A DNA stretch of 64,000 nt, taken from positions 1-64,000 of the IMG/VR virus record IMGVR_UViG_3300033233_000019; one strand, 5' to 3'. This stretch comes from a virus. Shown piece after piece: positions 11,421-15,579 of the stretch (positions are counted from its first letter, which is position 1; the number at the start of each line of letters is the position of its first letter). Made by a program: the position numbers and the translations under genes. The notes beneath the pieces were generated by a model that saw only the letters and a program-made list of their open reading frames with translations, was not told the origin of the DNA and made no database searches.

Positions 11421-11494
11421 ATTGACCTGATCTTCAGTGCATGGCGGTCAATCCATGCAGACGAGCGCCGGAAGACCAGCGCCCGTTTCACTAG
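11421..11494 (-). ncRNA. hammerhead ribozyme, type II with pseudoknot (HH1)
   Basis: GAAA-CGGGCGCUGG(UCUU)CCGGCGCUCG-UC^-UGCAUGG(AUUGACCG)CCAUGCA-CUGAAGA-UCAGGUCAAU; loop AUUGACC pairs with 3' GGUCAAU; predicted cut 11460/11459. Confidence 0.85.
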
Positions 11495-13644
11495 CACAGC
11501 TTGCGAACACCCCGGCCATTGCAGCCAGCGCAGTCGTGAGTGTATGCACCATCCGGCCAATAGCTAGCGTGCGGGTTGTGTAGCTTGCCTTGACCGTGGC
11601 ACACTGGACAGGGTGAAAGTTTCTTCAGCAGATTATCGCCTCCGCTGCGCTCAAACATCACCTTGTCGTGATCATCCAATTCAGTCCGCATGTGAAGCGA
11701 GATTTCAACTTCGCCCAACGTTGCGAAGAACGTGATCATCTTGCGTGCATAGGCCCGTTGTGCCAGTTCAGTCGCTGCACTCGTGGTGCATGAACCACAG
11801 AAGTAATTGTCAGAGACTAACCAGCGCGGTGCAGGTTGCTTCAAGAGCCACTGGATTGCCTGAAAGTCCACAGTGTTGCCACCGTAAATGTCAGGCAGCC
11901 TTTCACCAGCGGTCAGTTTGAACGAGCGACCATCCTTGGAGTAAATGACAAGCGCACCGCTATACTCGTTGCCCCTGTCGTCCCGGTTATGACCGCCGTT
12001 GTAATACGCGATTTGACCGATAGGCAAAGATTCAGCCAGCCGTGACAAACGCTCGTGATCCAGATTCATCGAACCCGATGCGTCAATCAAAACCGTGCCG
12101 CCCTTTTGCTCACCGATGCGTTCAAAAATCTTCCCCGGTTTTGGATCGAAGATTCGGGGAATGCGCGAAACGTTAATGCGCGAACCACTGTTCGCCAGCC
12201 TGTAATCGATGCCCTCTGTGATCTTCTTGGACATGCGATAGTCAAGCTTGCGAATCTTCATGGTCGGCATTGCACCGCTACCGTGGTACTCCAATAACTC
12301 TTTGATTGTTTCTGGATCAAGCAGTGCAAGCGACTCAGCCGTGATGCGACCATCTTCCATTGCATCCTGAATCTGATCGCCAGAGTCACCGATGCCGCCT
12401 TTGGTGCCTTCAGGCTGCGCCTGTTCATCATTGCACGGAACGTCAGCGGCCTGATCCCCGTCGCTGTCGCCTTCCGCTTCGCCTTCACCGGACTCGTCTT
12501 CATTGGACTCATCTTCAGAGTCGCCTTTGCCAGCGTCGGAATCACCGGACTCTTCTTCAGCCTCTTCGTCTTCATCGGAGTCGCCTTCGCCAGATTCGGA
12601 ATCACCAGACTCCTCAGATTCGTCTTCGTCGGACTCGTCAGACTTGGAATCACCGGACTCAGACGAATCATTCTCGTCTTCCTCTTCAGCTTTGCTGTCC
12701 GACTTGTCGGTCTTTTCTTTCTCGTCTTTCTTGTCCGACTTTGACTTCGCTTCCTTCTCGTCTTTCTTGTCGTCGGATTTTTTGCTATCCTGTTTCTTGT
12801 CCGACTTTTTCTCTTCAGGTTTTTTCTCTTCGTCTTCCTTTGCTGATATGCGACCGGAAGGCGATTGATCCTTGTCTGACTTCTTGCTGTCCTGCTTTGG
12901 TTGCGGTTTGCCTTGACCACCACCTTGCTGCTTAGGCTGGTCAAGCTTCGCATCATTGTTGGACAGCGTAAGGAACGGACGCATGATCGACTGCGCCTTC
13001 ACAACGTTGTCATGTTCCAATGCCTTGACAGCTTTTGCAATCGCAGCGAGAATGCCAGCCTTGCCAAGCGCCGCTTCAAAGGCAGCGACTACCTTGCTGA
13101 TAGTCTTCGCTACACGCGCTTCAGGAGTCTTCGACTCGCAACCACGGCGATTAGTGACACCGTAATGCAAGATGGCTAGTGCGCGAACCACAGGAACCAT
13201 ATTGACTCGCACTAACTCAGGCTCGACTTCCGCCATTTTCTTGATCTGCGGAAGAATCATGCTAACTGCTCTCCGCATATCACCTAATGCGAAGACCAGT
13301 TCGTCACGACGCGAACTGTCATTGTTGAATGGCATTGCCAGCGTGTGAATCCGCATGTCTTCCACGCCCTGAAACAGCGCAGTCATTTTTACTTCAGTGA
13401 CGCAAGGAAGATTCGCGTGCGATGCTTCGTGCCGACGCACTGCACGGTCACGAGCGGCCTGACCGATGGGAATGTAGGCGGTATTCGTTTTCGGATCGAA
13501 TGCGCCTGAAGCCTGTCCACCTTGTCCCATCACTCGCGCAGTGACTACCACGCGATTGACACGAGCCGGGAAATACTCAAGAGGGAAAAGCGGATTCGAT
13601 ACGTTGACGCCGCCGTGCGTGTTTTCCATGCCTTCTTGTTTCAT
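11491..13644 (-). CDS. CobT-like VWA protein with N-terminal HExxH metallopeptidase-like domain and long acidic linker
   Basis: RHEASH, VEDMRI, D/E/S/K-rich linker, MIDAS DASGS, C-terminal CxxC pairs. Confidence 0.8.
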   Translation of the reverse strand: MKQEGMENTHGGVNVSNPLFPLEYFPARVNRVVVTARVMGQGGQASGAFDPKTNTAYIPIGQAARDRAVRRHEASHANLPCVTEVKMTALFQGVEDMRIHTLAMPFNNDSSRRDELVFALGDMRRAVSMILPQIKKMAEVEPELVRVNMVPVVRALAILHYGVTNRRGCESKTPEARVAKTISKVVAAFEAALGKAGILAAIAKAVKALEHDNVVKAQSIMRPFLTLSNNDAKLDQPKQQGGGQGKPQPKQDSKKSDKDQSPSGRISAKEDEEKKPEEKKSDKKQDSKKSDDKKDEKEAKSKSDKKDEKEKTDKSDSKAEEEDENDSSESGDSKSDESDEDESEESGDSESGEGDSDEDEEAEEESGDSDAGKGDSEDESNEDESGEGEAEGDSDGDQAADVPCNDEQAQPEGTKGGIGDSGDQIQDAMEDGRITAESLALLDPETIKELLEYHGSGAMPTMKIRKLDYRMSKKITEGIDYRLANSGSRINVSRIPRIFDPKPGKIFERIGEQKGGTVLIDASGSMNLDHERLSRLAESLPIGQIAYYNGGHNRDDRGNEYSGALVIYSKDGRSFKLTAGERLPDIYGGNTVDFQAIQWLLKQPAPRWLVSDNYFCGSCTTSAATELAQRAYARKMITFFATLGEVEISLHMRTELDDHDKVMFERSGGDNLLKKLSPCPVCHGQGKLHNPHASYWPDGAYTHDCAGCNGRGVRKLC

Positions 13645-13653
13645 GTGGTTGCT

Positions 13654-13723
13654 CCGACCTGATCATCAGTATGCAGTGGTCAGTCTGCATATACGCGGCA
13701 ATGGTCTGCCGCGTTTCACTTAG
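13654..13723 (-). ncRNA. hammerhead ribozyme, type II with pseudoknot (HH2)
   Basis: GAAA-CGCGGCA(GACCAU)UGCCGCG-UA^-UAUGCAG(ACUGACCA)CUGCAUA-CUGAUGA-UCAGGUCGGAG; predicted cut 13692/13691. Confidence 0.85.
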
Positions 13724-14937
13724 AAGCCACGCTTGCGAGTCAGCGCAGCGGTTGACAGGCTGGACAGAAACTCAGGGCCAGCCGTGCCGAATACAGCCTT
13801 CGCAAGTAATTCGTCGCTGATCATGCCAGACTTGCGAAACCGCGAGAAAGAGCGAGTCATGCGTGTGGAAGGTAGCCGCGAGAATTGCCACGGCTTTGTA
13901 TCCAGAGCACGGTAGTAATTCATGCAGACTGCAATCTCGTCTTCAGTACAGTCAGCCAGAGCCGCAGGGTGCGGAGTAGTTGCGGTTAAGAACGCTTCGC
14001 ACCTATCCAGCAGCGGAGGCGCAAGCTGTTCAGGCGGATCATTCGTGGTGCCGATGCAGCAGAACCCCGGCGCAACGGAATCGATGTACGTTCCATCGGC
14101 CAAAAGAATCTGCGGTTGATCATCCCACACGCTATAGAACAGCGACTCGACTTCGCCGCCCGTGTGCGTGAACTCGTCGAACTGAAGAGGACAGCCATTG
14201 ATCAGAGCTAGCGGTACTGGCCCCATCACGAATTTCTGAACGGTGACACCATCCTCTTTCGCCAGTTGATACGAGCCAAGTAAATCTTCCAACGTGGTAC
14301 GTGGTGTCATGGTCACACGGTACACCTTGCGACCACCTACAAGCGCCTGAAGCGTCTTGTATGCAGTGGTGGACTTGCCAGTGCCAGCAGGACCAGTCAG
14401 CCCGATTCTGCGAACACCAGAATTAATCAGTGCCACGAGCACATCCTGCCAAGGTGCAGCAGGATTCACAAGTTTCTTCCCGCCCTTAACAGCGGTGATT
14501 GACGTTGCCTTGGCGACCTTGGGAGCAACCGGGGCGACAGGTGCCGTGACTTCCGCGACTTCGCCATCGATAGGATCGACAGCGACAGGAACCTGCACGA
14601 TTGGATCGATGCCCGGTTTGCCAATGTCCATCGGAGCAACCATGGGAGCGACCATCGGTGCAACTTCCGGCGCTTCGCCAGCCGGAACCGTTTCGCCGCG
14701 CATATCGGACGGGCGCATTTCGCCAGCCGCAACTTCGTGACAGGTCGGATCGCAATGCATGATCTTGCCAGTGACGGGTGAGCCGGAATTGTCACGCTTG
14801 CGCCATTGGTAGTAATGCGCCATTTCAAAGGACACAGCAGGAGCGCCGCCCTTCCAACCAAGAATTGTGCCGCCGCACACGACGCACTTACCGGTGAACT
14901 TCACTTTGTAACGTCTCTCTTCAGCCACGATACACAT
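13720..14937 (-). CDS. MoxR/CobS-like AAA+ ATPase
   Basis: Walker A GPAGTGKST, DLLG, Walker B LQFDEF, sensor TTN, LLDR; adjacent to VWA gene. Confidence 0.85.
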   Translation of the reverse strand: MCIVAEERRYKVKFTGKCVVCGGTILGWKGGAPAVSFEMAHYYQWRKRDNSGSPVTGKIMHCDPTCHEVAAGEMRPSDMRGETVPAGEAPEVAPMVAPMVAPMDIGKPGIDPIVQVPVAVDPIDGEVAEVTAPVAPVAPKVAKATSITAVKGGKKLVNPAAPWQDVLVALINSGVRRIGLTGPAGTGKSTTAYKTLQALVGGRKVYRVTMTPRTTLEDLLGSYQLAKEDGVTVQKFVMGPVPLALINGCPLQFDEFTHTGGEVESLFYSVWDDQPQILLADGTYIDSVAPGFCCIGTTNDPPEQLAPPLLDRCEAFLTATTPHPAALADCTEDEIAVCMNYYRALDTKPWQFSRLPSTRMTRSFSRFRKSGMISDELLAKAVFGTAGPEFLSSLSTAALTRKRGF

Positions 14938-14940
14938 CCT

Positions 14941-15027
14941 ATGACCTGATCTTCAGTATGCAGTGGTCAATCTGCACATACGCATCGGCACGTCGCCATT
15001 ACCGTGATGCCGATGCGTTTCACTCAG
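14941..15027 (-). ncRNA. hammerhead ribozyme, type II with pseudoknot (HH3)
   Basis: CUGA-GU-GAAA-CGCAUCGGCA...UGCCGAUGCG-UA^-UGUGCAG(AUUGACCA)CUGCAUA-CUGAAGA-UCAGGUCA; predicted cut 14979/14978. Confidence 0.85.
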
Positions 15028-15516
15028 CCCTTACGAATTAGATAATCGAGACATGCAAAGAAAAATGCTATCTCGACTGCTAGCCAAATGTGCGCCAGCA
15101 TCACAGCACCGGATCAGGATAAAGCTCGCCGCGCAAGAATGCGCGTTCCAGTTCATCCTGTGCTTCAGGGGAGGGAAGTTGTTTGTCTTTCGGTTTGCAG
15201 TCAGCATGTAGCACCAAGTGCGGTTGAAGGTGACGGACAATTTTGATTGCCTCACCGGGAAAAATATCTTCGTTGCAATTCAGGCAGTGACCAAAAAACT
15301 TTGCGTACATCATGTCAATTGCTCCGTTTCGGATTGAATGACGTTGTGAACCACAGTGGATTCTCTTCAGCGTAGAACCACGGACTGCATTGCCCTGACT
15401 TCGTGCGATACGAGAATGCACGTTCGGGCCGACTCAAACGCTCGACTTCCGTCTTAGTCGCAACCGTGATCTTGAGCATCGTGCGGATTGCTTTAGGTTT
15501 CAGCATTGCAATCACC

Positions 15517-15579
15517 TTGACCTGATCATCAGAGTGCAGTGGTCAGTCTGCACTAACGGGCCGAAGCCCATTTCACTCA
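15517..15579 (-). ncRNA. hammerhead ribozyme, type II with pseudoknot (HH4)
   Basis: UGA-GU-GAAA-UGGGC(UUCG)GCCCG-UU^-AGUGCAG(ACUGACCA)CUGCACU-CUGAUGA-UCAGGUCA; predicted cut 15555/15554. Confidence 0.85.

Follow-up and report, generated by a model that had tools for sequence, protein, structure and literature searches.

The first 64,000 nucleotides (nt) of the IMG/VR record IMGVR_UViG_3300033233_000019 (positions 1-64,000, referred to here as the window; the full virus record is 98.9 kb) carry four small RNA elements at the boundaries of a leftward series of genes. The host genome of this array is that of an uncultured ~99-kb sediment phage. The elements are probably four active type II hammerhead ribozymes, of a variant with a U10.1-U11.1 mismatch and a one-pair stem II, which cut a leftward polycistronic RNA into gene-sized messenger RNAs (mRNAs). 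Judged from the sequence, the hammerhead fold can be assigned with near certainty and self-cleavage is very likely, and a role of the array in processing or insulation is favoured with less assurance. The sequence of the elements, their fold, their covariation, the continuity of their family and their placement at gene boundaries were observed directly and are described below.

All four elements, HH1 to HH4, lie on the minus strand and follow a common plan: A-G-U, GAAA, a stem III hairpin, U-H, stem I, CUGA(U/A)GA, UCA and GGUC(A/G). In hammerhead numbering, A-G-U corresponds to 11.3-11.1, GAAA to G12-A15.1, U-H to U16.1-H17, CUGA(U/A)GA to C3-A9 and UCA to 10.1-10.3. Their parts are located as follows.

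HH4, 15518..15577, minus strand: A-G-U 15577-15575; GAAA 15574-15571; stem III of 5 bp with a UUCG loop; U16.1 15556; H17 = U 15555, predicted cut 15555/15554; CUGAUGA 15532-15526; UCA 15525-15523; pseudoknot tail GGUCA 15522-15518; 88.7 bits with the model built from the elements themselves.
HH3, 14942..15024, minus strand: A-G-U 15024-15022; a long stem III with an outer helix of 10 bp and an inner part; H17 = A 14979, predicted cut 14979/14978; CUGAAGA 14956-14950; UCA 14949-14947; tail GGUCA 14946-14942.
HH2, 13654..13720, minus strand: A-G-U 13720-13718, overlapping the UAA stop of an ATPase gene; H17 = A 13692, predicted cut 13692/13691; CUGAUGA 13669-13663; UCA 13662-13660; tail GGUCGG 13659-13654, overlapping a GGAG ribosome-binding site; Rfam family RF02276 at 28.1 bits, E 0.01.
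HH1, 11422..11492, minus strand: A-G-U 11492-11490, overlapping the UAG stop of a gene for a 717-aa protein; H17 = C 11460, predicted cut 11460/11459; CUGAAGA 11437-11431; UCA 11430-11428; tail GGUCAA 11427-11422; RF02276 at 30.5 bits, E 0.0024.

The catalytic core is complete in every copy (C3-A9, G12-A14 and A15.1-U16.1), with CUGAUGA as the core strand in HH2 and HH4 and CUGAAGA in HH1 and HH3. H17 is C, A, A and U in HH1 to HH4, never G, which gives the cleavage triplets GUC, GUA, GUA and GUU. Stem I consists of 7 bp with an 8-nt loop, NNUGACCN, and the UGACC of this loop pairs with the GGUCA of the 3' tail over 4-6 bp, forming the pseudoknot of the type II permutation in which stem II is open. 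The stem III hairpins comprise 5, 7, 10 and 10 or more pairs (6 to 14 in predicted folds); their sequences are unrelated, and all four pair. Cuts after H17, predicted at 15555/4, 14979/8, 13692/1 and 11460/59, would release units of 576, 1287 and 2232 nt. A preliminary description of this DNA had placed four homologous elements here, assigned them to pseudoknotted type II hammerheads, pointed out the 7-bp stem I with its loop paired to the 3' GGUC(A/G) and the pairing of dissimilar stem III sequences, and given the same cuts and units; the layout was found again in the sequence and the recomputed cut positions agree.

A generic type II descriptor, searched on both strands (GAAA, then a hairpin with an A-U closing pair and no fewer than 4 bp, U-H, a second hairpin of 5 bp or more, and CUGANGA), matches the 64 kb exactly four times, each at a known site, as against a mean of 0.02 and a maximum of 1 in 100 dinucleotide shuffles. 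The 14-mer CTGANGATCAGGTC likewise has four exact occurrences. In minimum free energy folds of the elements both stem I and stem III form as described above, at z-scores between -2.2 and -3.8. R1, a covariance model derived from the four elements, detects no fifth copy in the window or in the remainder of the 98.9-kb record. Its weaker matches, at 10246, 16258-16389, 20324-20419, 61723-61880 and 341-418, are without GAAA and/or CUGANGA and are not hammerheads. The preliminary description had suggested comparison with the Rfam hammerhead models. At E-value thresholds Hammerhead_II (RF02276) is the sole ribozyme family reported across the whole window, with no other ribozyme class, and it matches HH1 (30.5 bits) and HH2 (28.1 bits), below its gathering threshold of 37; at gathering scores Rfam yields zero hammerheads in the window. 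The scores fall below the threshold because stem II offers only the U10.1-U11.1 mismatch and one C-G pair.

The 3' end of the ribozyme, GATCAGGTC, has three extra exact copies on the same strand outside the hammerheads (16266-16274, 20332-20340 and 62449-62457, minus strand), making seven copies in all versus 0.42 expected. The copy at 16.3 kb, found ~100 nt after a UAAGUGAAC that follows the stop of an open reading frame (ORF), could be a decayed ribozyme. The copy at 62.4 kb is antisense to a gene and is probably due to chance.

Relatives of the elements extend the family well beyond this phage. An exact-pattern scan of viral contigs, using the loop and the 3' half, identified 11 further contigs, from which R1 aligned 33 copies, 27 of them distinct. 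The search pattern did not include AGUGAAA, yet every one of the 27 relatives has AGUGAA and 26 have the final A as well. The lone exception, on contig L014, is a U15.1-A16.1 variant, and this same variant is reported to cleave still (PMC3088659). CUGANGA, which was part of the search pattern, is invariant apart from N7 in 27 of 27, and H17 is A, C or U throughout. As in the window, the stem III sequences of the relatives are unrelated and always paired, over 6-14 bp. Two-sided changes are found in six of the seven stem I pairs and in all three scored stem III pairs, the latter being 100% paired. Paired cells amount to 94.8%, versus 77.4% in shuffles and 26-34% with slid partners, and the covariation score is 0.454 versus 0.125 in shuffles; none of 500 shuffles reaches any observed measure. 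Because the alignment was fitted to R1, the pairing counts lean towards the structure; a per-sequence pairing check is independent of that alignment. Stem II contributes one invariant C-G pair, with no variation for a covariation test.

A second, looser scan (AGTGAAAC ... CTGANGATCA) recovered at least six variants of the pseudoknot: UUAGCG/CGCUAA, UGGCC/GGCCA, UAGCC/GGCUA, UAGCG/CGCUA, UGAU/GUCA and UGGU/GCCA. In this wider set the pseudoknot begins straight after UCA, with one exception. The letters change as pairs at the same place, and thus the pseudoknot covaries. Members of the same subtype that exceed the Rfam Hammerhead_II threshold are found on contigs L013 (44 bits), L050 (the copy at 5858, 48.7 bits) and L048 (43 bits).

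Arrays of these ribozymes recur in other phages. IMGVR_UViG_3300005937_000002 (L011), a complete 82-kb phage with terminal repeats, encodes 12 hammerheads of the same subtype within 5.7 kb (2407-8134), about one per small gene, with an identical stem I and a variable stem III. Contig L008 carries four nearly identical copies, and copies within a genome are more alike than copies from different genomes. In both L008 and L011 the ribozymes are likewise intergenic and on the coding strand. The genes between copies are unrelated among contigs, and the window proteins have no homologue in any of 128 ribozyme-bearing loci. A profile-based locus search around distant relatives of the ATPase (26-31% identity) found no hammerheads, a result of little weight at such distance. 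Neither at the DNA nor at the protein level did a phage genome collection yield a match to this region. In four other sediment metagenomes, related phages are represented by DNA contigs at 80-99% identity, which break or jump between copies because the repeats disturb assembly; as DNA data, these have no bearing on cleavage or circles.

The unusual part of the window elements is stem II, which the preliminary description left unmentioned. It is nearly absent in all four copies, with U.U at 10.1/11.1, C-G at 10.2/11.2 as the sole Watson-Crick pair and A.A at 10.3/11.3. A Watson-Crick pair, usually G-C, is expected at 10.1-11.1, and U.U stands there instead in all four and in the whole subtype. 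Among natural hammerheads U10.1-U11.1 does occur, U.U being cited as the best-tolerated mismatch, and stems II of two pairs or even one are on record (PMC3088659). The three-copy array on contig L050 (4424-4491, 5858-5924 and 7140-7207) combines one U.U copy with two canonical G10.1-C11.1 copies (AGC-GAAA ... GCA). The two forms have almost the same stem III and differ essentially at the 10.1-11.1 pair. The U.U form thus derives simply from the common type II hammerhead with a pseudoknot, and this mixed array shows the two forms to be interchangeable in nature.

The elements also stand in a regular register with the genes on either side. A survey covered 40 distinct elements of the subtype, 38 of which follow an open frame of 40 codons or more. 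The stop codon of this frame ends from -6 to +3 nt from G12 in 32 of the 38, usually as UAG-U, UAA-GU, UGA-GU or a UGA inside AGUGAA, and it precedes the cut in 37. The distance from UCA to the next start codon that has a Shine-Dalgarno-like motif is 15-33 nt, or 43 nt in two elements. Since the stop comes before the cut and the ribosome-binding site after it, no stopless message would arise and the ribosome-binding site would always stay with the downstream piece. As the preliminary description had recognised, the upstream stops of HH1 (UAG) and HH2 (UAA) abut or overlap AGUGAAA, and the ribosome-binding site follows or overlaps the pseudoknot tail. HH4 is found 20 nt past the upstream stop.

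The gaps between consecutive minus-strand ORFs that house ribozymes measure 75-95 nt. Reading along the minus strand, the order is a 74-aa ORF, HH4, ORFs of 63, 70 and possibly 25 aa, HH3, the ATPase gene, HH2, the gene for the 717-aa protein, HH1 and an 81-aa ORF. A family A DNA polymerase, a helicase-type ATPase and a ribonucleotide reductase are encoded upstream on the same strand.

15597..15821, minus strand: 74-aa ORF upstream of HH4, without a family match.
15024..15506, minus strand: coding part of the small-ORF unit (576 nt), holding the 63-aa, 70-aa and possible 25-aa ORFs.
15315-15506, minus strand: 63-aa ORF in the 576-nt unit.
15101-15313, minus strand: 70-aa ORF, with a weak match to phrog_1581.
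15024-15101, minus strand: possible hydrophobic 25-aa ORF, overlapping the 70-aa ORF at its start (ATGA), with a UGA stop that abuts the GUGAAA of HH3.
13720..14937, minus strand: AAA_5 ATPase (MoxR/CobS/NorQ-like), 405 aa from ATG, in the 1287-nt unit.
11491..13644, minus strand: 717-aa protein, phrog_33218, in the 2232-nt unit.
11165..11410, minus strand: 81-aa ORF downstream of HH1, without a family match.

The 25-aa ORF was read straight off the sequence; it is a possible gene that fits the stop-codon/ribozyme register of the family. The ATPase has an alternative start, a better-spaced GTG at 14928 that gives 402 aa, and its nearest homologues share 56-73% identity. Its assignment to the AAA_5/MoxR type, already made in the preliminary description, is upheld by PF07728 (3.3e-11), by phrog_249 and by the solved relatives midasin, NorQ and CobS. 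About 150 residues (1-150) extend the N terminus ahead of the AAA_5 core; they contain clusters of Cys and His (CxxC ... HCDPTCH) as well as a linker rich in Pro and Val, and no family was found for them. The 717-aa protein contains a long acidic middle, a DASGS motif in its C-terminal domain and a terminal CxxCxGxG zinc finger. The same description had called it a VWA protein. The DxSxS motif and weak structural look-alikes of the C-terminal domain, the VWA domains of CobT and NorD (TM 0.46-0.49, leads only), agree with that name; Pfam gives no VWA match and a search of solved structures gave no relative. The name is partly supported, and the C-terminal domain is probably VWA-like. Promoter- and terminator-like sites over 9000-19000, a span that includes the cluster, are not commoner than in shuffled sequence; these counts are compatible with a single transcript and do not demonstrate one.

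Two other candidate RNA genes were seen in the window. A match to permuted tmRNA (RF04321) lies at 24696-24948 on the minus strand, between the ribonucleotide reductase and DNA polymerase genes in the replication arm. It reaches 56 bits in Rfam (threshold 47) and is not called by ARAGORN. It may be a phage-borne two-piece tmRNA, hinting at a host with a permuted tmRNA. A lone tRNA-Thr (UGU) is located at 20850-20925 (minus strand), where Rfam and ARAGORN agree.

In the mechanism favoured here, the four elements would be carried on one leftward polycistronic RNA. Each would fold upon synthesis, since stem I, stem III and also the pseudoknot involve only local pairing, and would then cut after H17, co-transcriptionally, at a point 3' of the upstream stop codon and 5' of the next ribosome-binding site. 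The upstream piece would retain its stop codon and terminate, with the stem III hairpin, in a 2',3'-cyclic phosphate. The downstream piece would carry a 5'-OH, the stem I hairpin and the pseudoknot, followed 15-18 nt after UCA by the ribosome-binding site. The anatomy suggests that the products would part at once and that the cut would be effectively irreversible, because the products share one base pair (C-G) and core contacts, with stems I and III and the pseudoknot contained within single products. The outcome would be gene-sized mRNAs for the small ORFs, the ATPase and its VWA-like partner, with defined, structured ends. Stability and translation of these units could differ, insulated from neighbouring sequence. 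Ends of this kind are expected to alter 5'-end-dependent and 3'-exonucleolytic decay by bacterial RNases, and the ATPase and its partner could then be kept at unequal levels. That the elements cleave, that one transcript spans them and that expression is affected is what we infer from this arrangement.

Several observations weigh against this mechanism. None of the four elements reaches the Rfam gathering score, and HH3 and HH4 go unreported even at E-value thresholds. The 10.1-11.1 pair is the most conserved of the class; minimal hammerheads mismatched at this position are less active, and the cleavage rate could therefore be modest. A competing 4-bp hairpin, CUGA/UCAG, is predicted in the isolated fold, and what clustered phage hammerheads are for has yet to be proven in any system (PMC6765202). 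These elements could instead be inactive look-alikes or relics, in which U.U and a one-pair stem II are catalytically dead and the hairpins act as binding sites for RNases or proteins or as stabilisers. Such a reading agrees with the sub-threshold Rfam scores of all four copies and with the use of 10.1-11.1 mispairing as a rejection criterion in the screen of Perreault et al. (PMC3088659, methods). It is nonetheless quite unlikely, as the four copies, despite the divergence of stem III, and 26 of 27 relatives retain each of the 11 core letters that are strictly required. The pseudoknot, which covaries, is of consequence to the active fold alone; the U.U form swaps with the canonical form in the L050 array, and natural hammerheads with this best-tolerated mismatch have been reported (PMC3088659). 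The similarity of same-genome copies, nearly identical in L008 and sharing stem I in L011, would also suit a selfish cassette, neutral for gene expression, that recombination carries around a phage genome and from one phage genome to another. Flanking genes are unrelated between contigs and assemblies of related phages break at the copies, as such a repeat would predict. A neutral repeat would not be expected to lie strictly between genes on their coding strand, to keep register with the stop codon and the ribosome-binding site, or to have its catalytic core under purifying selection, and this origin is very unlikely.

Two further explanations accept cleavage and add a layer to it. Translation could gate the cut, if a terminating or stalled ribosome covered GAAA and half of stem III and blocked folding, so that upstream translation set the fate of the downstream cistron. 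The stop position near G12 in 32 of 38 elements, and likewise at HH1, HH2 and the 25-aa ORF before HH3, is what gating would require. Tight packing of phage genes alone could give this overlap, however, HH4 sits well beyond its stop, and hammerheads fold in milliseconds to seconds, so that the cut could precede the first ribosome; gating is therefore unlikely. The preliminary description had raised circular mRNAs, in which the units between neighbouring hammerheads are closed by the reverse reaction or by host RtcB, with a chimeric hammerhead at the junction. At its 5' end a unit would indeed bear the 3' portion of the preceding ribozyme, and at its 3' end the 5' portion of the following one. 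All four share the same letters where the portions interact (AGU/UCA and the core), making a chimeric ribozyme possible by sequence. The unit ends would be RtcB substrates, which are ends of the kind that hammerhead cleavage leaves (5'-OH and 2',3'-cyclic phosphate). Yet the ends would be joined through one C-G pair only, across 576-2232 nt, and the rebuilt hammerhead, being complete, would re-cut. A search of the phage genome gave no RtcB and no RNA ligase, and the ORFs have ordinary stops with no endless frame. Circular or spliced products were considered and looked for in comparable clusters and were not detected (PMC3088659). Beyond the sequence compatibility circularisation is unsupported, and it is extremely unlikely. 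A more elaborate scheme, in which host RtcB forms circles of the ATPase and partner messages and the chimeric hammerhead serves as a reopening timer, or alternatively terminating ribosomes gate the cut, is highly improbable as well.

Processing of a long transcript by cleavage, the reading preferred here, has synthetic and natural counterparts. RiboJ-type insulators are engineered elements in which a hammerhead from plant satellite RNA (type III) and a hairpin are placed before a ribosome-binding site. Like these, the window elements place a hammerhead just 5' of the ribosome-binding site, which would give a fixed, structured 5'-OH leader independent of upstream sequence. Unlike RiboJ, they are natural, are of type II and leave the stop codon of the upstream gene on the 5' product. 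The natural counterparts are the type II hammerheads described by Perreault et al. in 2011, which need the pseudoknot of loop I with the tail that follows stem II in order to cleave fast (PMC3088659). The window copies resemble that type (RF02276) in the order of parts, the core, the closed stems I and III and the very short, open stem II, and in the A spacer followed by a 4-6-bp loop I/tail pseudoknot directly after stem II. They differ in having U.U in place of G10.1-C11.1, one Watson-Crick pair in stem II, and scores of 28-30 bits or none versus the threshold of 37.

In prophages, multiple hammerheads flank single genes or short gene blocks, and three such clusters proved self-cleaving in vitro (PMC3088659). 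The clusters of Clostridium scindens, Azorhizobium caulinodans and Agrobacterium tumefaciens (PMC3088659, Figure 3) share with the window several intergenic ribozymes on one strand and gene identities that are not conserved. The present array differs from the prophage clusters in belonging to an uncultured 99-kb sediment phage, in bracketing two genes one by one, for a MoxR-type ATPase and for its probable VWA partner, and in that all four copies belong to one homologous subtype. The suggested role of the clusters is the conversion of long phage transcripts into gene-length mRNAs (PMC3088659), and a 2019 review calls the roles of bacterial hammerheads "largely elusive" (PMC6765202). The novelty implied by the preliminary description was overrated, as the structural and contextual features were all published in 2011 (PMC3088659); the array is a clean but ordinary further example of the phage hammerhead clusters described then.

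The phage is uncultured, which limits direct testing, and the regular cassette of stop codon, ribozyme and ribosome-binding site is transferable to a reporter operon. The Rfam Hammerhead_II threshold misses the U10.1-U11.1 subtype, so arrays of this kind are under-annotated in viral metagenomes. For the question of what clustered phage hammerheads do, this locus offers a tidy case with four copies of one subtype, in which an ATPase and its probable VWA partner, whose ratio plausibly matters, are bracketed singly.

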